This document shows positions 2,104-26,325 of a DNA stretch of 64,000 bases, in pieces (position 1 is the stretch's first letter; the number at the start of each line of letters is the position of its first letter). Position numbers and translations under genes: made by a program. A model generated the notes under the pieces. The model ran no database searches, was not told the origin of the DNA, and saw nothing but the letters and a program-made list of their open reading frames with translations. The DNA lies in the IMG/VR virus record IMGVR_UViG_3300046779_001841, positions 128,001-192,000 of that record; one strand, 5' to 3'. Source of the DNA: a virus (taxonomy: Duplodnaviria; Caudoviricetes).

Positions 2104-3393
2104 ATGAAATATGCAAATGATGAGAAAGCCCAAATTGAAAAAGCATTATGGGAAGTAGTGAAAACTGCATCAATGGCATTGATGAGATTAAATAAGATGA
2201 GTGGTGAAGAAGAAATTATTGAAGAAGAAAAACCAACCAAACTTGCAAAAAAGGTAGAAGAAATGCCACCTGTTCAAAAAACATTATCAATGGCTGATAG
2301 GATAGCATCTTTGAGAAATCGTAATCTTGAAGAAAGAAAAGTGATGCCTACAAGACAACCAGAAGAAAAAAAAGTAGTGCAGGTAAAGAAAGCGAGTTTG
2401 ACGGATGATAAGATCAAATCATTTGCAACAAGGATAGGAAATGAGATTTCATCTAAAGTGAAAGATGAAGAATATGATTTAAGAGTATTATTTAAGCAAT
2501 CGAATACATGGAATGAGATCAAAGATATGATTGATAGTAATTCAATTAAATCAGTGGTATCATCAGTGAATGAATTTATACAAGATAAGTTAGATCAGAA
2601 GTATGCACAAGAAGTAGAACAAGCGAAGAAGAAACAGGCATTATTAAAACAAAAAGAAGCCTTATTGAAACAAGCAGAAGAGCAAAAGCAATTAGAATTA
2701 GTGGAAGCTAGAAAGCAAAAACTAGCGAATAGTATTAAATCACAAAAGAATGTGATCATGGCATCAATCATTAAAGAGATGAAGCCCTTTGTAAAGGTAG
2801 GCAACATGAATACGATTAATGTAGCATTACAGAAGTCTGCAACATGGCAAAGTGTGAAATCTACATTAGCGAACCAAACAGAAAGAAATGCTTTCTTTAG
2901 TGAAATGATCCAACAATCTGGATTTTTAAATAAACAATCTGATTTCCAAAGAGATGTTATACCACCGAACAGAGATAGTTTTTCTACAGGTGTTCAAACA
3001 AATAGAGGAGTAGATAATTTCAAAGGTAAAGAAAGTGTGCCTAAAGGTTATTCAGATGATATAGGTTCAACTGCACCCGATTCACCAGTGAATAAGACAT
3101 TGAATTTAGATAGGTCGGATAGTCATGGTAGAACACCAGCAACTGCATTAAATAATATAACAGAAGTAGTGCAAAGTGGTGGTTCAGCTAAAGTCATTCC
3201 AGAAAATAAAGGATATGCAAATAATTCATCACCATTAAGACAAGCAGGTGAAGATGAATTAGAGAATTTATGGTCTACTGAAGAAGTAGGTGAAGAAGAA
3301 GATTTAGATGAAATGGAATCGGAATTTGAACAAGAGATAGAAGGTGGAATGGATGATGAAGAATTGGATGATGATGATTTTTTTAATGATTAA
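2104..3393 (+). CDS. Coiled-coil protein with very acidic C-terminus (scaffold-like hypothetical)
   Basis: Start reassigned to ATG 2104 (MKYANDEK; AAAGG upstream). K/E/Q-rich heptads, poly-E/D tail, and RIASLR and KKAS motifs. Confidence 0.7.
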   Translation: MKYANDEKAQIEKALWEVVKTASMALMRLNKMSGEEEIIEEEKPTKLAKKVEEMPPVQKTLSMADRIASLRNRNLEERKVMPTRQPEEKKVVQVKKASLTDDKIKSFATRIGNEISSKVKDEEYDLRVLFKQSNTWNEIKDMIDSNSIKSVVSSVNEFIQDKLDQKYAQEVEQAKKKQALLKQKEALLKQAEEQKQLELVEARKQKLANSIKSQKNVIMASIIKEMKPFVKVGNMNTINVALQKSATWQSVKSTLANQTERNAFFSEMIQQSGFLNKQSDFQRDVIPPNRDSFSTGVQTNRGVDNFKGKESVPKGYSDDIGSTAPDSPVNKTLNLDRSDSHGRTPATALNNITEVVQSGGSAKVIPENKGYANNSSPLRQAGEDELENLWSTEEVGEEEDLDEMESEFEQEIEGGMDDEELDDDDFFND

Positions 3394-7270: not shown

Positions 7271-7831
7271 ATGTTTTTTAATAATCGTATCGCCAAAGCT
7301 AATGTCAATCCTGTTCGCCAAAGAACACAATATTCTTGTGTATCTGCATCAACAGCAATGGCATTAAATTCTTTAGGTTTTGATACCACTGAAGATGAAG
7401 TTCAAAAAGTCATAGGTGCTAAACCTATGCAAGGTGCAAGGTGGGAAGAAGTTTTAGCTTGTTTGCAACATTATGGATGTAGAGGAACACTTGTTGTACC
7501 ATCAACATTAAAACAAGTTAAAGGTTGGACTGATCTTGGCAAACCTGTTTTAATCTCTTGGAATCCCGAAGGTAGAGAATGGAGCCATGCAAGTTTAATT
7601 TTTGATGTCATAGAAAAACCAGATGGTTCTATGGATGTTTATGTTGCTGATCCAAATATTCCGGATCCAGATCAAACAGTTCGTATTGTGGATTCAAGTA
7701 GTTTCTATTCTAAGTGGGCTGAAAAGTGGCCAAATTACATGGTTCGTAGACCTGCACTTATGGTAGATCGTGAAATAAACACTGAAGGTCGTCAAATAAT
7801 GGCATCTTTAAGAAAGAAAAAAGGATTTTAA
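7271..7831 (+). CDS. Peptidase C39-like cysteine peptidase
   Basis: RQRTQYSCVSASTAMAL (Q..C), GKPVLI...SHASLI (His) and VYVADP (Asp) match the C39 catalytic layout. Confidence 0.85.
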   Translation: MFFNNRIAKANVNPVRQRTQYSCVSASTAMALNSLGFDTTEDEVQKVIGAKPMQGARWEEVLACLQHYGCRGTLVVPSTLKQVKGWTDLGKPVLISWNPEGREWSHASLIFDVIEKPDGSMDVYVADPNIPDPDQTVRIVDSSSFYSKWAEKWPNYMVRRPALMVDREINTEGRQIMASLRKKKGF

Positions 7832-7832
7832 A

Positions 7833-8822
7833 ATGTTAAACAATAGAAGACGCAATAATCGTATTGCTTGTGGTTGTGGTGATGATACATCTTTATCTCA
7901 ACCTTTAATGATGAGAAGAGATTATGGTTCTCAAGATCATTTTGCTAGTGATGAAATGTTAGCTGATTTTGATAAAGAATCAAGATTTCATGAAGGACCC
8001 AAAGGTAAAAAAGAATGGAAAGAATGGTTTGAAGATCAACCTGAAGATTTTCAAGAAGAATGGAATGAGAATACAGAAAAGTATCGTGATAAATTTAAAG
8101 AAGCAAGATTTCATAGAGGACCCAAAGGCAGAAAGAATTTTGAAAAATGGATTAAGACACAACCATTTGAAGATGAATGGAATGTGAATAATTGTATGTA
8201 TAGTGGAACGATTACAGGTAAAGCACCTAAATCACAAGAATCTTGCGAACAAGAATTAGGTGTTAAACTCGCATCAAGAGTTGCCAATAGATTTATGGAA
8301 AATACCAACAATAATAGATTTCTCAATCGCACTGCTAGACATCTTATTGCATCTATTGAAACTGAAATGAATGAACTCTTATCTGAAGCAGATAAGGCTG
8401 ATGAAAAAGCTAAAGAATATAAAACTGCATGGTCTAAACAAGATCTTTCTTATTTAAAGAAATCAAATATTATTCCAGCTGATTTACATGATAAACTTGC
8501 ATCATCTTTTGATATTATTAAGAGTGCAGAAGAAATGGTAAAGAATGCAGTAAAAAAATTAAAAGCTACTGCAAAGAGTAAAAGAAAAGAAGCTAGAAAA
8601 TTAGGTAAAAAAGCTAATGCTATCATGGAACTCCAAGCAGATAGTGATGGTTCTTATATGTCTGTTTCTAATATCAATCAAATGATTACTCAATTAACTT
8701 CTCTTGCAGATGTTATTCATGCAGATACAGAATTAGAAGACTGGGTTGAAAGCAAACTTGCACACGCACATCAAAATATTCTTGATGTTGCGAACTATAT
8801 GTTCTTTTCACCTAAAGTTTAA
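7833..8822 (+). CDS. Hypothetical (putative head-associated) protein with internal repeat
   Basis: Two RFH(E/R)GPKG.K....W...QP repeats. The C-terminal QL..L....D.ELEDWVESKLAHA.....V..YM segment resembles a helical motif common in myovirus hypotheticals. Confidence 0.65.
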   Translation: MLNNRRRNNRIACGCGDDTSLSQPLMMRRDYGSQDHFASDEMLADFDKESRFHEGPKGKKEWKEWFEDQPEDFQEEWNENTEKYRDKFKEARFHRGPKGRKNFEKWIKTQPFEDEWNVNNCMYSGTITGKAPKSQESCEQELGVKLASRVANRFMENTNNNRFLNRTARHLIASIETEMNELLSEADKADEKAKEYKTAWSKQDLSYLKKSNIIPADLHDKLASSFDIIKSAEEMVKNAVKKLKATAKSKRKEARKLGKKANAIMELQADSDGSYMSVSNINQMITQLTSLADVIHADTELEDWVESKLAHAHQNILDVANYMFFSPKV

Positions 8823-21137: not shown

Positions 21138-21734
21138 TCATCTATTATCTTGTCTACCATCTTCAGCACTCCTTGTTGTTAATGCTTTAAATCTTATTTG
21201 TTTTCTTTTACTTTGGAGCATCAGCTTTTTTTTATCAAGCATTTCTTGACCAGTCATTTTTTCATAAGTTAAAATTGTAGTTGCCTGCATGACTGCACGA
21301 TCAATCGCTTTTTCTATCCATGAGTATTTTACAACAGCTGGGTGTATCCAAGATTTTTCTGTTACTAATGGCAATGTTCTAAACTCAATTTCACCATTTC
21401 TATTTTTAACAGGTATGGCTTGTCTTGGTTTATTTCTTTCTGTTTTAAGCCAGTGCATAGGATAAGCAGGTTTGTTTCTTAAATGATACTTGATATGTTG
21501 CCATGTAGAATATAATACAATATCACCATTATCTTTTATCTGTACACCAAAAGAATAAATAAACTCTTGTGTTTTAGGAACTGCACTAAATAATTGACCT
21601 GCTCTTTTAGCTTCTTCTCTAACTTCATTTAAAATCATTTCTGCGATAAATTGAATTTCTTTTCGTGTTTTGTCTTTGATAGGTTGTCTAAAGACAAATT
21701 GTTTTTTAAGTCTATCTACCATTTTAAAATGCAA
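21138..21734 (-). CDS. Putative neck/tail component, hypothetical
   Basis: Basic 198-aa ORF; the start may be ATG 21722; same operon as the tail genes. Confidence 0.5.
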   Translation of the reverse strand: MHFKMVDRLKKQFVFRQPIKDKTRKEIQFIAEMILNEVREEAKRAGQLFSAVPKTQEFIYSFGVQIKDNGDIVLYSTWQHIKYHLRNKPAYPMHWLKTERNKPRQAIPVKNRNGEIEFRTLPLVTEKSWIHPAVVKYSWIEKAIDRAVMQATTILTYEKMTGQEMLDKKKLMLQSKRKQIRFKALTTRSAEDGRQDNR

Positions 21735-21748
21735 TCTTAATAAATGTT

Positions 21749-21784
21749 CTTTAATAGAAACTTTAATAGAAACTTTAATAGAAA
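21749..21784. repeat. 12-bp perfect tandem repeat x3 (CTTTAATAGAAA)
   Basis: Directly visible; intergenic, upstream of the 21734 operon. Confidence 0.9.
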
Positions 21785-21824: not shown

Positions 21825-22154
21825 CTATCTATTATATAAATAGCTAAGATGTTCATCAAGTTCTTCAGTAATTCTTTCTGTCTTACCCAACAAACTGCTA
21901 ATTTCAACAAGTACTTCGAGCAGAGGTCTTCTTAACTTATTCAAAGAATCTACAAGTTGAGCATTTCCTGTTCTTTTAGCTTCTCTAATAAGAACATCAA
22001 GCGCACTAATTTCTTCCTCAAGTGCGGTATCCAAAAGGTTAAAAGTACTTTGGACTTCATCTGAAGAGGTTGCTAGTCGGTCTAAAACACTTGGTGATAT
22101 GATTGATGCTTTTTTAAGCAAAGAAGCCAAACGACTTAATCTTTGTGAATACAT
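21825..22154 (-). CDS. Small helical protein with RLAS...KKAS leader
   Basis: MYSQRLSRLASLLKKAS followed by a heptad helical hairpin. Confidence 0.8.
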   Translation of the reverse strand: MYSQRLSRLASLLKKASIISPSVLDRLATSSDEVQSTFNLLDTALEEEISALDVLIREAKRTGNAQLVDSLNKLRRPLLEVLVEISSLLGKTERITEELDEHLSYLYNR

Positions 22155-22171
22155 GGTAGTTTCTCTTTTTG

Positions 22172-22537
22172 TTAAAACTGTCCGATTTCGCCTAATTCAT
22201 TACATTCTTCATAAATATGTGCGGCCAAAAATTCTGATTTCTTAACAAGATTTTGAAGTTGGTATGAAACTTGTTGCAATTCTTGTTTAATCTGATTTAA
22301 CTGGTAAACATCTTCACGATGTTCAGCTTGATCCATCACTTCTTCAAGTGCATCTTGTTGTTCCATTGCCAAATTAAATAAATCACCAATAGCATCAACA
22401 AAAGCACTTGTAGTGTTATGTAATTCTTCTAAACTCTTCTCAGAAAACATAGGTGATGCTTTTTTGCTTCTTAAAGAAGCCAAACGATTTTGTCTTAAAG
22501 AAGCCAAACGGCTTTGTCTTTGTCTTTGTGAATACAT
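22172..22537 (-). CDS. Small helical protein with duplicated RLASLR leader
   Basis: MYSQRQRQSRLASLRQNRLASLRSKKAS; GGAG SD. Confidence 0.8.
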   Translation of the reverse strand: MYSQRQRQSRLASLRQNRLASLRSKKASPMFSEKSLEELHNTTSAFVDAIGDLFNLAMEQQDALEEVMDQAEHREDVYQLNQIKQELQQVSYQLQNLVKKSEFLAAHIYEECNELGEIGQF

Positions 22538-22616
22538 AATAGTATCTCCATTTGTTTGTTAAAGTTTTAAGTTTATTAAACTCATCTCAATAAAAGATTA
22601 TAAATAAACTATAATC

Positions 22617-23105
22617 TTATTTTGAATATGGAGAACCTACAAAAATAGGTGCAAGACTTCCATATTTATCTTCAAAATCTCTTAAATCATCAAGAGCAGG
22701 AATGTTCCCATACAAGATTTCTCTTTCACCTTCGGAAGCATCAAAAAAATCTTCTCCTTCAGTCATCAATTCTATCACCTGTTGAATATATTCTGGGAAT
22801 CCTCTTTCAAGCATCTCAAGAAAACCTTCTCCTACCTTAAATGCCTGACTCTTCTTATCCTTCATAGAACTCAAAAGTTTAACTGTCTTAGCTTTTGTCA
22901 TGGCTATTTCTTTTAGCCATTCAGGTTTTGCTTTTACTATAAACTGGTCTGAGAAATTATCACTTCTTAAATTCTCCACTAATCCCCAAATTTGCAGAAG
23001 TTTGTCATCATCACCAGATGGCATTACAGAAGATTTTCTTAAAGAAGCTAAACGGCTTTTTCTTAAAGAAGACAAACGGCTTAATCTTTGTCTTTGTGTA
23101 AACAT
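22617..23105 (-). CDS. Leader-bearing small protein (paralog of 23892..24353)
   Basis: MFTQRQRLSRLSSLRKSRLASLRKSSVMPSGD; GGAG SD. Confidence 0.8.
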   Translation of the reverse strand: MFTQRQRLSRLSSLRKSRLASLRKSSVMPSGDDDKLLQIWGLVENLRSDNFSDQFIVKAKPEWLKEIAMTKAKTVKLLSSMKDKKSQAFKVGEGFLEMLERGFPEYIQQVIELMTEGEDFFDASEGEREILYGNIPALDDLRDFEDKYGSLAPIFVGSPYSK

Positions 23106-23193
23106 GGTAGTTTCTCCATTTGTAAAAAAAGTTTTAAGTTTATTAAACTCATCTTAATAAAAGAATATCAATAAACTATTGATGCGAATGTTT
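23001..23193. repeat. About 190-bp direct repeat, copy 1 (leader coding + SD + upstream motif)
   Basis: Near-identical to 24249..24439 by visual alignment. Confidence 0.9.
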
Positions 23194-23195
23194 AA

Positions 23196-23225
23196 TAATA
23201 ATAGTTTATAGATAAACTATTATTA
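23196..23225. promoter_or_regulatory. Perfect 14-bp inverted repeat of the ATAGTTTAT motif between divergent genes
   Basis: TAATAATAGTTTAT-AG-ATAAACTATTATTA, checked base by base. Confidence 0.75.
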
Positions 23226-23261
23226 AGATATATTGTCTTTACACAAAAGGATCACTAAAAA

Positions 23262-23768
23262 ATGATTAATCAAAAATTAGCTTCTCTTGAAGCAAGAATT
23301 ACTAGACTTGAATCAAGTCTTAATCAAAAACAAGCATCTTGGATGTCATCACCAGGTTCAAAACATGAACAATTTTTAGACATGAAAAATGATTTTCTTA
23401 GCAATATTGATGTTAAGAAAATTAAAGACATTCTCAATATGAAAACTAAAAAATATGATCTTGAATTTGTTCTTGGATCAACAGGTGAAGATGGTCGTTT
23501 TTCAGTAGAGCAATTTAAAATTGTATGTAAGAATTTAGAAGGCACTAAATTTTACCCACCTATCTATTTTGAATTTTCTTTTACTGTTGAAGAAGAAGAA
23601 TTGTTTTTTCATGCAGGTGCTTGGTTGCCAAAAAATAGATCTAAACTTTCACCTGATGCTGAAGATGGTTTATCCTTTTCCTATACAAAAAAAGTTAATG
23701 TTAATGTAGAAGTAGTAGATTTTCTTGTTGATTGGATTGACCAAATTAAGATGGACTATCCATATTAA
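23262..23768 (+). CDS. Small protein with QKLASLEARITRLE...KQAS leader
   Basis: 168 aa; upstream TTTACACAAAAGGAT is identical to that of the 24536 gene. Confidence 0.8.
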   Translation: MINQKLASLEARITRLESSLNQKQASWMSSPGSKHEQFLDMKNDFLSNIDVKKIKDILNMKTKKYDLEFVLGSTGEDGRFSVEQFKIVCKNLEGTKFYPPIYFEFSFTVEEEELFFHAGAWLPKNRSKLSPDAEDGLSFSYTKKVNVNVEVVDFLVDWIDQIKMDYPY

Positions 23769-23891
23769 TTTTATCCTTCTCATTCTCATAAACAACAATC
23801 TTTTTGAATGATGGATATAGATAAGTATCCTAAAAGTCATGAAGAAAATATTTTAAAAGATGCTCGTGAATTTATTAAAAACAAAACAGGA

Positions 23892-24353
23892 TTATAACTT
23901 TAAATTAAACTTTCTTGCAAGGTCATCTAAATAATCATACACATCAGGGTCATAAGAAAAAACCAATGGTTCGTGCATCTCAAAACGGAGTTCTCTTCCC
24001 TCATCCAGACTAGAGGTCAAATCATTAATATAATATGGCCATTCATTTTCAAGAACCTCAAGAAGAATTTTAGCGGCCTTAAATTCTTCACCATTCTTAT
24101 CTTCAATAGTTCCCATAACTTTCATCGCATAAGATTTTACATTAGCCATTTTTTTAAGAAATTCGGGTTTTGGCTTTATAGTAAAAGCATCTGAGAATTT
24201 TTCAATACTATTTTCAAGACCATTGACTTGTGCAAAAATTTTCAGAACTTTGTCTTCATCACCAGATGGCATTAAAGAAGATTTTCTTAAAGAAGCTAAA
24301 CGGCTTTTTCTTAAAGAAGCCATACGGCTTAATCTTTGTCTTTGTGTAAACAT
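23892..24353 (-). CDS. Leader-bearing small protein (paralog of 22617..23105)
   Basis: MFTQRQRLSRMASLRKSRLASLRKSSLMPSGD. Confidence 0.8.
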   Translation of the reverse strand: MFTQRQRLSRMASLRKSRLASLRKSSLMPSGDEDKVLKIFAQVNGLENSIEKFSDAFTIKPKPEFLKKMANVKSYAMKVMGTIEDKNGEEFKAAKILLEVLENEWPYYINDLTSSLDEGRELRFEMHEPLVFSYDPDVYDYLDDLARKFNLKL

Positions 24354-24439
24354 AATAGTTTCTCCATTTGTTAAAAAAGTTTTAGTTTATTAAACTCATC
24401 TATAAATAGACTATAAATAAACTATTGATGCGAATGTTT
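24249..24439. repeat. About 190-bp direct repeat, copy 2
   Basis: Matches 23001..23193. Confidence 0.9.
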
Positions 24440-24535
24440 TAATAGTTTAGCTTTATATTGAAGTTTAAGGTTTCAATAGTTTATTTATAATTTTTCTTTA
24501 TAGAAAACTTGTTTTTACACAAAAGGATAATCAAA

Positions 24536-24955
24536 ATGATTAGTCAAAAAATCGCTTCTTTAGAAGCTCGTATTGCTAGACTCGAAGGTCGCAATAAAAA
24601 TGCTGGGTTTGGGGGGGGTTTAAATCTTAAGATTGTAGCATCAAATCTTACTAAGATTCAAGATTGGATGTATGAACCTGTAGAAGTTTTTGGTGACACA
24701 TTAGAAACTCATAATTATTTTAAACAAGCCCCAGATGATGCTTATTCTTGGACTTTTAAAATTTCTCAAGAATCCGAATTAATTTATATTGACTATGAAG
24801 GGATTCCTAAAGGGGTTAATCGTAAATATCGTGGTGAAGAAACTATTTCTACTTACGATGTAAGTGGTGATCTTAATAAATATGTGGCAAGGTATATTAA
24901 AGATGAAATTATGAACTTGAATGCACAGGGACGGAGATTACTGAGTCGGAGATAA
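24536..24955 (+). CDS. Small protein with QKIASLEARIARLE...KNAG leader
   Basis: Start reassigned from TTG 24509 to ATG 24536 (AAAGGA SD); the cargo does not align with that of the 23262 gene by eye. Confidence 0.8.
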   Translation: MISQKIASLEARIARLEGRNKNAGFGGGLNLKIVASNLTKIQDWMYEPVEVFGDTLETHNYFKQAPDDAYSWTFKISQESELIYIDYEGIPKGVNRKYRGEETISTYDVSGDLNKYVARYIKDEIMNLNAQGRRLLSRR

Positions 24956-24957
24956 TT

Positions 24958-26325
24958 TTATCCACCATGATTATGATTTTCCCATACTGCTGTTCTCCCT
25001 CTTAATTCATGATTGGCTGATACTTCAGCTTTCTCACTCATCATTGGTATCGCATTATCTGTTTGTGTTGAATATGGTGCATCATTTCTTGCAGAATATG
25101 TATCTCTTATTGTTTGATATGTATATCTTGTCTTATGCCATAACACTGGAACTCCATCCATTGGTACAGAATATCTTATATCTGCAGGTTCAAAATATGC
25201 TAAATTAAAATGTTGTTGCAATACATTTCCTCTTGCATTTGGTCTTCTTACGGGTCCTAGACTATATCGGTCATTATTCTGTTTCACTATAAAATCTCTT
25301 TGACTTACGATTGGACTGGGACCAATATACACTTCATACGAATGTTCTTTTCTCCTACCTTGTGTTGCTTGACTTATTCTTCTTTCTGCATCATCTGGTG
25401 CTACTATTATATCATAGGGACCATCATATCCACCTATCAATCCAGTGCCAAAACATCTTATACATCTTGAATCAGGTTGCTTTCCATATTCTAATGTATA
25501 CCTATTAAATGCTCCACACTCGCATGGCTGTCCAACCACTTTCTTTAAAAACAATCTTACTCTTTCTCCACCTTGTTCTAAAGCCCACTGATTTCTTCTC
25601 ACACCTTCCCTCCACATCCAATCTACTTTTTCAATTTCTATATCACTAAATGGTTGTGTGTAATCTAATGGACTTTCATGTAAAGCACCTGTTGTAGGAT
25701 CTTCTGCAACAGTGGTTACACGATAATATGTTTTTTTATCTATGATAGAAGAAATTTTGCCTTCTGGTAAATAAGATAAATATGTACAAGTCACAACACT
25801 GGTATTTGGATCAAAGACTAATTGAATATCATTCATTAATGTAATGACATTAGTGGTTGCACCTTGTCTTAATACAATTTCACCTGTTTGTCCAAACACA
25901 CTTGCTGGATATGCAACTTGACCATCTATTTTAACAATCACATCTCTATATGATGTAGATGGTTCTATTGCACTACCTATTCTTGCGATTGGTCTTGCAG
26001 TTTTAAAACGATATGCACCATCTGCATTACTGCCTATGCTTATCCAATTTGTTATCACTTCATCAAAAATCATTTCAGTGATATTTGTATCTCTATAAAA
26101 AGTTGCACTGACTGGTTGTTGATTTATTCTTTGATAGGGTCCACGATCAGATGTGTTTGATCTATATATATTGACACCACGAATAATCCATCCTTCATTT
26201 TCATGTATAAAAGAAGGACTATCCCAGCGAAGATCAATCGCACCTTTAAGAAAAGGTGAATTTGCAGATGTATTTCTTGGAGGCATTGGATAAGGTGATC
26301 TTGAATATTCCCAGCCAGCAGTCAT
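24958..26325 (-). CDS. Putative head-completion/neck protein with FN3-like N-terminus and zinc motif
   Basis: LRWD.P....GVNIYRS...YQRIN (FN3-like), then GERV.LF.K...G.PCEC...PDSRC..CFGTG..GGY.GP, a pattern I associate with neck/head-closure proteins of large phages. Confidence 0.6.
   Translation of the reverse strand: MTAGWEYSRSPYPMPPRNTSANSPFLKGAIDLRWDSPSFIHENEGWIIRGVNIYRSNTSDRGPYQRINQQPVSATFYRDTNITEMIFDEVITNWISIGSNADGAYRFKTARPIARIGSAIEPSTSYRDVIVKIDGQVAYPASVFGQTGEIVLRQGATTNVITLMNDIQLVFDPNTSVVTCTYLSYLPEGKISSIIDKKTYYRVTTVAEDPTTGALHESPLDYTQPFSDIEIEKVDWMWREGVRRNQWALEQGGERVRLFLKKVVGQPCECGAFNRYTLEYGKQPDSRCIRCFGTGLIGGYDGPYDIIVAPDDAERRISQATQGRRKEHSYEVYIGPSPIVSQRDFIVKQNNDRYSLGPVRRPNARGNVLQQHFNLAYFEPADIRYSVPMDGVPVLWHKTRYTYQTIRDTYSARNDAPYSTQTDNAIPMMSEKAEVSANHELRGRTAVWENHNHGG

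Follow-up and report, generated by a model that had tools for sequence, protein, structure and literature searches.

A family of N-terminal leader peptides on small, mostly unrelated proteins of a lake jumbo phage: a possible removable capsid-loading tag

In phage T4, the internal proteins IPI, IPII and IPIII and the protein Alt carry a capsid-targeting sequence (CTS) that is removed by the gp21 prohead protease, and their packaging has been proven (PMC9026906). Like the T4 CTS, an N-terminal signal on P1 DarB directs head loading (PMC9026906, PMC9024508); this P1 signal has ~30 residues, which suffice for head placement, and the cargo acts after injection (PMC9024508). A T4 review also suggests that the propeptide of the protease may take the same route (PMC9026906). 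In the jumbo phages phiKZ and SPN3US, head and ejection proteins have propeptides that are cut at S/A/G-x-E (PMC10052503, PMC7411985). Here we describe a family of leader peptides in an uncultivated lake jumbo myophage (316 kb, 31% GC) and ask how it compares with these systems.

The window analysed is a 64,000-nucleotide stretch of this genome. Six small genes lie in it between sheath-side genes on one flank and baseplate-side genes on the other, and each begins with a short leader of either a basic or a heptad form. All six open reading frames of the initial annotation are present, with the start of g6 moved:

21825..22154, minus strand: g1, 109 aa, basic leader with one RLASL unit
22172..22537, minus strand: g2, 121 aa, basic leader with two RLASLR units
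22617..23105, minus strand: g3, 162 aa, basic leader with two units; minus member of divergent pair 1
23106..23261, no strand: divergent intergenic region of pair 1, duplicated for pair 2 at 24354-24535
23262..23768, plus strand: g4, 168 aa, heptad leader; plus member of pair 1
23892..24353, minus strand: g5, 153 aa, basic leader as in g3; minus member of pair 2
24536..24955, plus strand: g6, 139 aa from ATG 24536, heptad leader; plus member of pair 2

The genes are thus arranged as two duplicated divergent pairs (g3/g4 and g5/g6) and one tandem pair. For g6, the most likely start is ATG 24536 (MISQK...), which is preceded by an AAAGGAT ribosome site; the upstream TTG 24509 was rejected. The ribosome sites, a minus-side GATGAGTTTAATAAAC and a central AAACTATTGATGCGAATGTTT recur in both intergenic copies, neither of which contains the early-type promoter TTGCAA...TGTTATA. 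A TTTAATA box precedes 10 of 17 leader genes (P = 4e-6), but we dropped it as a sign of late expression because 34 other genes, of all kinds, have it too in an AT-rich genome. In close relatives whose flanks are 95% identical, the slot measures 0.45-3.2 kb and holds other leader genes. The six-gene site is a fast-changing accessory slot within the tail gene region, one that adds at least four different bodies; T4 cargo genes likewise lie in fast-changing loci. The DNA of the region had no match among 50,697 phage records, degenerate DNA patterns for both leaders had 0 matches in IMG/VR once the phage's own record was set aside, and a search for related loci with g3 and g4 returned no relatives. 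An S21 gene, sought to test membership in the freshwater bS21 phages (PMC9723584), was not found.

The basic leaders (minus-strand genes) contain the unit L-(A/S)-S-L-R, twice, and the heptad leaders (plus-strand genes) the units L-A-S-L-E and I-A-K-L-E. The latter follow an a/d pattern, L-x-x-L-x-x-x-I-x-x-L, with E at the e positions and K/R at g, and the basic form is a charge-swapped, 8-residue-repeat counterpart of it. The LASL core is common to both and is written with identical codons. The 24-nt tandem repeat noted in the initial annotation is real, and in g2 it encodes the repeated 8-residue leader unit. The leaders and repeats are as follows, with a slash for the candidate cut:

22107-22154 (approximate), minus strand: g1 leader, MYSQRLSRLASLLKKA/S
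22457-22537 (approximate), minus strand: g2 leader, terminating KKA/S
22469..22520, no strand: 24-nt tandem of g2, 2.2 copies, 92%
23031-23105 (approximate), minus strand: g3 leader, terminating RKSS
23034-23082, no strand: 24-nt tandem of g3, 2.0 copies
23262-23336, plus strand: g4 leader, MINQKLASLEARITRLE...KQA/S
24279-24353 (approximate), minus strand: g5 leader, RKSS as in g3
24282-24330, no strand: 24-nt tandem of g5, 2.0 copies
24536-24604, plus strand: g6 leader, MISQKIASLEARIARLE..KNA/G

As in T4, a short N-terminal peptide stands on otherwise unrelated small proteins. However, the leaders show no sequence likeness to the T4 CTS (MKTYQEFIAE), and they consist of 16-27 residues with two repeated helical units, compared with 10-19 residues in T4.

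The leaders are far better conserved than what follows them. The g3 and g5 leaders are ~96% identical in DNA, against a protein identity of 39% for the bodies, and g4 and g6 have 14 of 18 N-terminal residues in common and no likeness beyond, so that these two plus-strand cargos indeed do not align. The description of the cargo as variable fits the mostly unrelated bodies across the family but is too broad for the minus strand, where g3 and g5 are clear paralogues (E = 9e-23) and g1 and g2 weak ones (E = 0.002-0.06); no kinship between these two sets was seen after the leader was removed. The bodies seen here are acidic (g1 helical with a pI of 4.6, g2 with a net charge of -14), whereas those of T4 are basic. 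Lake metagenomes contain a near-identical g1 orthologue (P0007), in which 2 of 3 differences fall within the leader; g2 orthologues P0006 and P0008 retain the leader with bodies down to ~35% identity, and g4 orthologues P0001-P0003 retain leader and KQAS. These comparisons indicate that the peptide itself is under selection, since heptad codons differ and orthologues keep the leader as the body diverges.

The structure models are of low confidence: g3 is predicted to be all-helical (pLDDT 55) with a leader helix at residues 4-24, and g4 to start with the leader as a helix and to continue as an alpha/beta body (pLDDT 62). Fold searches with the g4 model found merely common alpha/beta sandwiches (best Z 6.5, every Foldseek TM <0.5), and we claim no fold. 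Pfam and PHROGs gave no usable match for the six proteins and their neighbours, the sole match, phrog_184 on g1 (E = 0.007), being judged chance, and the ESM Atlas gave no lead on the cargos. The suggestion that the cargo acts against the host found no support: no Pfam, PHROG or solved-fold match came up for the cargos.

The family extends well beyond the six genes first described. When the N-termini of all 1980 candidate starts were clustered, the leader family, with at least 19 genes, was by far the largest cluster, and is therefore not due to chance; T4 has only a handful of such cargos. Its members are spread over at least 8 loci, the majority distant from tail genes, and the upstream DNA at the other loci is quite different. 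Three other proteins of this genome carry the motif at the C-terminus instead, among them a 447-aa protein ending ...KKAS-LKNRVASLLRRYYQI and a 227-aa protein adjoining the portal gene and ending ...RVASRLATLKKKIQK. A search with the leader profile found no match in the 485-kb relative LR745208.1, in Tunturi_5 or in phage G. De novo clustering of N-termini in the same three genomes, however, revealed a leader family in LR745208.1, where a different leader, M(T)TLRSKLIRLAHENPALRPQLLPLLKEA[AG], stands on at least 11 genes. The leader-plus-body architecture is the same, in other sequence and at 55% GC. By this clustering, phage G and Tunturi_5, which belong to the same capsid lineage, are without such a family. 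That lineage, phage G / mycobacteriophage cluster C, is another point of difference from T4.

Next, we considered how the leaders end. The majority terminate in [KR]-x-A-[SG] or in RKSS, after a helix-to-site linker that varies from 0 to 9 residues. Within residues 11-34, K-x-A-[SG] is present for 9 of 17 leader genes but just 9 of 330 others (Fisher, 5e-9). Where it is missing, leader genes mostly carry KKSS, RKSS or EKAS, and two family members (51904 and 85232) have no site at all. The residue after the Ala is S or G, but E in P0008 and Y and N in L089. The site also recurs in the head module, in which portal and protease genes are followed by those for a 694-aa acidic coiled-coil scaffold and the major capsid protein (MCP). 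In genome coordinates, the protease lies at 289836-291320, the scaffold at 287738-289822 and the MCP at 285973-286854. The scaffold, adjoined by the head maturation protease gene, has 6 strict K-x-A-[SG] sites, or 8 with Arg allowed, against ~1.1 in shuffled sequences (P = 6e-4), and the LR745208.1 scaffold is likewise enriched (P = 1e-3). Furthermore, in an alignment of six diverged scaffolds, [KR]-x-A-[SA] directly precedes the conserved C-terminal domain in 6/6, and LG[RK]KAS is retained in 4/6. The site was not enriched in two more distant scaffolds; G001 shows none, though this phage has a leader. The KLAS of the MCP N-arm was dropped as a cut site, as this stretch is conserved structurally in phage G without the Lys.

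These data suggest that the head protease may be specific for [KR]-x-A-[SG]. Its sole match is phrog_18299, and not the gp21 family; no Pfam family was found at E < 0.01, and a PDB sequence search gave no match. The proposed site also differs from the L/I-x-E of T4, but the logic would be the same, in that the T4 leader ends at the kind of site that is cut in the scaffold core. phiKZ and SPN3US similarly trim many head proteins at a short motif with one protease in a jumbo phage, but their propeptides are long and are not a common portable leader, and the basic leaders here lack Glu, while the heptad leaders do contain S-L-E. The initial proposal of a head-targeted leader removed at K-x-A is the best supported of the readings, through the site statistics, the scaffold conservation, the position of the protease gene and the protease likeness described below, all of them sequence comparisons; the RKSS of g3 and g5, which has no Ala, speaks against it.

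In both this phage (G000) and LR745208.1, the head protease ends in a helix that contains the signature pentapeptide of the same phage's leader. R[IL]AK[LI] occurs 7 times in 124,000 residues in G000 (5 leaders, 1 elsewhere and 1 in the protease, within its last 13 residues), and [LI]IRLA 9 times in 352,000 residues in LR745208.1 (7 leaders, 1 protease tail, 1 elsewhere). RLASL occurs once in the scaffold. These protease-tail and scaffold likenesses were noticed post hoc and are based on 5-residue words. Encapsulin cargo-loading peptides are short terminal tags that can carry foreign proteins into the shell, and in HK97 the maturation protease reportedly has a C-terminal tail that brings the protease itself into the shell and can bring in foreign proteins (Duda, Oh and Hendrix 2013). 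The leaders resemble these in repeating the C-terminal helix of the protease, and the three C-terminally tagged proteins do so in position, but the six genes have theirs at the N-terminus, ahead of a presumed cut site. The two phages have nearly identical capsid proteins (MCP 87.5% identical) despite their differing leaders, and therefore the diverged scaffold is more likely than the MCP to be the leader's partner.

Our preferred reading, at roughly even odds (about 0.5), is a T4-like capsid-targeting propeptide assembled from other parts: a leader that brings changeable cargo into the capsid and is then removed. The leader units would mimic the helix with which this phage's head protease ends as well as the helix-plus-site stretch of the scaffold, enabling the protein to join the scaffold/protease core during prohead assembly. 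The flexible linker would then expose the cut site, [KR]-x-A-[SG] or, in g3 and g5, RKSS; the head protease would cleave it as in the scaffold, and the body would be left free in the head while the leader departs with the scaffold fragments. We infer docking, cutting, packaging and any role after injection from sequence. The comparison with T4 holds in logic alone, given the different site and the lack of likeness to the T4 CTS. With P1 Dar the predicted likeness is the N-terminal head-loading signal; in P1 a single signal is known, on one large protein, with neither a leader family nor scaffold-site logic. KLAS/RLAS within the leader itself matches the proposed cut site, so a docking helix cannot be separated from an array of cut sites.

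It is possible, though unlikely, that the leader is instead a permanent docking or oligomerisation helix that fastens small proteins to a common hub, for instance part of the virion or a complex of the host or phage, and is neither cleaved nor directed to the head. The heptad form has a textbook a/d pattern, the leader forms a long helix in the g3 and g4 models alike, the residue that follows the proposed cut is variable, and the six genes sit between sheath-side and baseplate-side genes. However, two heptads give little length for a stable coiled coil, and the basic form has an 8-residue period with a helical hydrophobic moment near nil over its full length (0.08-0.16). Such a helix would also leave unexplained both the [KR]-x-A-[SG] after a variable linker and the same site throughout the scaffold, and most of the loci are far from tail genes.

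The window also encodes a second candidate processing enzyme:

7271..7831, plus strand: Peptidase_C39_2 protein, 186 aa (PF13529, 35.4 bits, E = 2e-8)

The leaders could thus be recognition sequences for this stand-alone papain-fold peptidase, with one enzyme serving many precursors as in bacteriocin/RiPP systems, a reading we consider improbable. Homologues are present in 4/4 leader-bearing phages tested (G000, G002, G001 and, weakly, LR745208.1) and absent from the two leaderless relatives, phage G and Tunturi_5, but this co-occurrence is based on six genomes and tracks their relatedness. Double-glycine leaders have hydrophobic positions at 3-5-3 spacing, and the 8-residue repeat sets Leu at the same spacing; still, our leaders have neither Gly-Gly, with the Gly expected at -2, nor a fixed hydrophobic register (-4, -7, -12, -15), and the 0-9-residue linker leaves the helix-site register free. 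While the peptidase C-terminus, ...GRQIMASLRKKKGF, resembles a basic leader unit, Q-[IV]-[MV]-A-S is conserved across the peptidase family even in phages with a different leader, and is therefore part of the enzyme and not a matched tag. Furthermore, there is no fused ABC transporter, no radical-SAM enzyme was found in the genome, and the peptidase and its neighbour bear capsid-like stretches, so that the peptidase may itself be a head protein.

Finally, we consider it highly improbable that the peptide is functionless and that duplication and gene conversion have spread the block as a DNA cassette of promoter, ribosome site and first codons. In favour of this, g3 and g5 are 90-96% identical over the leader and ~90 nt upstream, with 0 synonymous differences in 35 codons and saturated bodies, and the heptad leaders have the same DNA through codons 1-5. 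Against it, the seven heptad leaders keep their residues while codons vary at L6, L9, A11, R12, I13, K15, L16 and E17, upstream DNA differs at other loci, orthologues in other phages retain the peptide, and LR745208.1 has the same architecture in a different sequence.

Returning to the removable capsid-loading propeptide, we suspect only tentatively, and think it rather unlikely, that the clade has an open, programmable loading code, in which a copy of the protease docking helix plus [KR]-x-A-[SG] at either end would admit any protein. The code would drift with protease and scaffold, the neutral heptad form and the basic tandem form would address different partners or places in the core (the basic form might, as one possibility, bind the very acidic scaffold or DNA), the divergent pairs would supply two-part cargos, and the hypervariable slots would hold an injected counter-defence arsenal.

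If the leader is indeed a capsid-loading propeptide, the head-carried, injected proteins of uncultivated freshwater jumbo phages would be readable from sequence alone, with a predicted head cargo of ~19 proteins in this phage and at least 11 in its 485-kb relative. The charge-swapped basic form and the co-drift of leader and protease tail would offer a natural experiment on docking determinants, and large capsids could be loaded with foreign proteins by means of a small portable tag whose cut site is defined. Altogether, the 'address label' principle of T4 would have arisen independently in another capsid lineage, from a protease tail and a segment of scaffold.

Between positions 21825 and 24955 of the window we found all six open reading frames claimed by the initial annotation, and its observation that they bear N-terminal leaders was confirmed. 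The four minus-strand genes (g1, g2, g3 and g5) start with M-[YF]-[ST]-Q-R and continue with an 8-residue unit of the type S-R-L-A-S-L-R-K, present once in g1 and twice in g2, g3 and g5, where the 24-nt DNA tandem is the repeat of this unit; these basic leaders end in KKAS or RKSS. The two plus-strand genes (g4, and g6, whose start is best placed at the ATG at 24536) start with M-I-[NS]-Q-K-[LI]-A-S-L-E-A-R-I-x-R-L-E, with KQAS or KNAG a few residues downstream. The leaders carry a net charge of +2 to +8, and the bodies behind them are acidic in all six cases (pI 4.2–5.4). As had been stated from the sequence, the g4 and g6 bodies do not align. With the leader removed, g3 and g5 are clear paralogues and g1 and g2 weak ones, while no link was found among the other groups; the six genes therefore hold at least four kinds of body.

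The heptad form of the leader (g4, g6) and the basic form align with a one-residue offset. They have in common an L-A-S-L core with identical Ala-Ser codons (GCT TCT), and differ in having Glu in the heptad form (LASLE, IAKLE) versus Arg in the basic form (LSSLR, LASLR). In the heptad form the a/d pattern is regular and the helical moment is 0.45–0.50; the basic form, because it has an 8-residue period and a near-nil moment along the whole leader (0.08–0.16), is more aptly described as a pair of short units than as a single extended amphipathic helix. In a whole-genome scan at least 19 genes proved to carry the leader; they are spread over eight or more loci, and 13 of them lie outside the window. 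The seven heptad leaders keep their residues with two or three codons used at eight positions. Orthologues of g4 from lake metagenomes (98, 79 and 74% identity) keep the leader and KQAS, and nearly the whole basic leader is kept in a g2 orthologue (P0006) and in P0008, a far more distant relative whose body is about 35% identical. All this indicates selection on the leader peptide. Between g3 and g5 the leader, together with some 90 nt upstream of it, is near-identical with zero synonymous changes, which suggests that a promoter-leader cassette was recently duplicated or copied by gene conversion; both processes, peptide selection and cassette copying, seem to be at work. The window also encodes a 367-aa protein (2290–3393, plus strand) whose N-terminus, MADRIASLRNR, weakly resembles the leader and which has VKKAS at residues 33–36. 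Its middle part is a Gln/Lys-rich coiled coil and its C-terminus is strongly acidic. This protein may be the window's seventh family member, larger than the other six, or else its second scaffold-like protein.

The six genes occupy a variable slot between two flanking genes:

21138–21734: 198-aa gene
24958–26325, minus strand: 455-aa gene

Within the slot, a basic-leader and a heptad-leader gene form a divergent pair around a common intergenic region, present in two copies (g3/g4 and g5/g6), and g2 and g1 stand in tandem behind g3. Where relatives have flanking genes 95–96% identical, the slot spans just 0.45–2.1 kb and its genes are different ones, some of which carry additional leader variants (MLRRNKLASLKVRLASLNTKKAY and MFNYKLSFIRSRLANLKKAN among them); relatives further removed have the two flanking genes side by side. 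Because its length and content vary among relatives and it is missing in distant ones, the comparison indicates that the slot is a hypervariable accessory island. The 455-aa flank protein, which matched no family, has a Cys-x-Cys...Cys-x-x-Cys cluster and is conserved, at 95–96% identity in several IMG/VR contigs; its gene is a good anchor for slot comparison. A perfect 12-nt tandem in three copies, CTTTAATAGAAA, lies at 21749–21784, between g1 and the 198-aa gene.

The window covers bases 128001–192000 of its source record (IMG/VR virus, 316,221 bp, 31% GC), which is that of a large myovirus, coding for a 1741-aa sheath-like protein, a baseplate J protein, a family A DNA polymerase and an NAD ligase. 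Its head module lies beyond the window, at genome 283–299 kb, in this order:

portal
1266-aa protein
494-aa head maturation protease (phrog_18299)
694-aa acidic coiled-coil protein, in scaffold position
223-aa protein
293-aa major capsid protein (MCP)

By MCP, the closest records are LR745208.1 (uncultured, 485 kb; 87.5% identity), Tunturiibacter phage Tunturi_5 (47%) and Bacillus phage G (38%). We found K-x-A-[SG] at residues 11–34 in 9 of 17 leader genes versus 9 of 330 other genes (Fisher 5e-9). The remaining leader genes mostly have KKSS, RKSS or EKAS, and the linker from the last helix Leu to the site measures 0 to 9 residues. The scaffold contains six strict K-x-A-[SG] sites, or eight with Arg allowed first, versus about 1.1 in composition-preserving shuffles (P 6e-4), and the LR745208.1 scaffold also has six (P 1e-3). 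When six otherwise largely diverged scaffolds were aligned, [KR]-x-A-[SA] stood immediately ahead of the conserved C-terminal domain in every one and LG[RK]KAS was retained in four. Also conserved was a helix with G-x-K-x-A-G after it, this phage's version being RLASLFFAS...KKAS. Two distant scaffolds showed no overall site enrichment, so the site rule does not hold throughout the clade.

Across the clade the C-terminal end of the head protease is a conserved helix: ILVRLAKILSLK in this phage, TLIRLASLLSAHKSAS in LR745208.1, and TLIRLGKLLS, TLVKLCKLLS and SIIRIGAVMS in three relatives. The leader of LR745208.1 is a different one, 29 residues long: M(T)TLRSKLIRLAHENPALRPQLLPLLKEA[AG]. At least 11 genes of 93–351 aa carry it (stretches L015–L034 and L051–L055, for example L034:18171–18575, minus strand), and two of these genes lie within that phage's head module; a similar leader occurs in a 381-kb IMG/VR phage (L102:513–1148). 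The word [LI]IRLA turned up nine times among 352,000 residues of LR745208.1 six-frame ORFs (seven leaders, one protease tail, one elsewhere); for R[IL]AK[LI] in this phage the count was seven among 124,000 residues (five leaders, one within the final 13 protease residues, one elsewhere). Both words were picked after the pattern had been noticed, which makes the odds rough. Even so, a leader/protease-tail match that recurs in two phages with different leaders is difficult to see as accidental. The HK97 protease tail, the subject of work by Duda et al. in 2013, reportedly follows the same logic as the proposed leader. This phage and LR745208.1 have closely similar MCPs but unlike leaders, protease tails and scaffolds, which favours the scaffold/protease core over the shell protein as the more likely docking partner. 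In three further proteins the leader motif is C-terminal, in one directly behind KKAS; the following lie beyond the window:

Genome 272583–273926, plus strand: 447-aa protein ending KKAS-LKNRVASLLRRYYQI
Genome 295751–296434, minus strand: 227-aa HAD/polynucleotide-kinase-like protein adjoining the portal, ending RVASRLATLKKKIQK

A second enzyme could in principle process the leaders:

7271–7831, plus strand: stand-alone 186-aa Peptidase_C39_2 protein (PF13529, 35.4 bits)

Homologues of this C39-like peptidase are present in all four leader-bearing phages tested (this phage and three relatives) and in neither leaderless relative (phage G, Tunturi_5), and its C-terminus, ...QIMASLRKKKGF, is similar to the basic unit. 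However, Q-[IV]-[MV]-A-S is conserved in the peptidase family whatever the leader type, and the lack of Gly-Gly together with the variable linker argues against a double-glycine mechanism; we consider this enzyme an unlikely processor of the leaders. No radical-SAM gene was found in the genome. Directly behind the peptidase gene, a 329-aa protein (7833–8822, plus strand) carries near its N-terminus SQPLMMRRDYGS, which closely copies the stretch TQPLRLRRDYTS of the MCP N-arm. It also has two KLAS sites, one within KLASSF, a hexapeptide also found in the scaffold. LR745208.1 has this capsid-like stretch as a C-terminal fusion on its own C39-like peptidase. Both proteins may be head-internal and mimic the capsid N-arm.

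An early-type promoter of roughly 40 copies was found at 0 of 17 leader genes versus 34 of 330 others, a difference that is not significant, and the TTTAATA box upstream of leader genes is too common for dating expression. The initial annotation had read the genes as capsid-targeted proteins with anti-host cargo. This reading is partly supported: the site statistics, the scaffold sites and the likeness to the protease tail speak for its targeting logic, but not for its anti-host part. The cargos gave no confident match to any family or fold. We give roughly even odds (about 0.5) to the leader being a removable capsid-loading signal. The leader would let the protein co-assemble with the scaffold/protease core, the head protease would cut at [KR]-x-A-[SG], and the body would be left inside the head. 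The logic would be that of the T4 capsid-targeting sequence (PMC9026906) and the P1 DarB signal (PMC9024508), to which the sequence here is unrelated, in the setting of a phage G-like capsid lineage.
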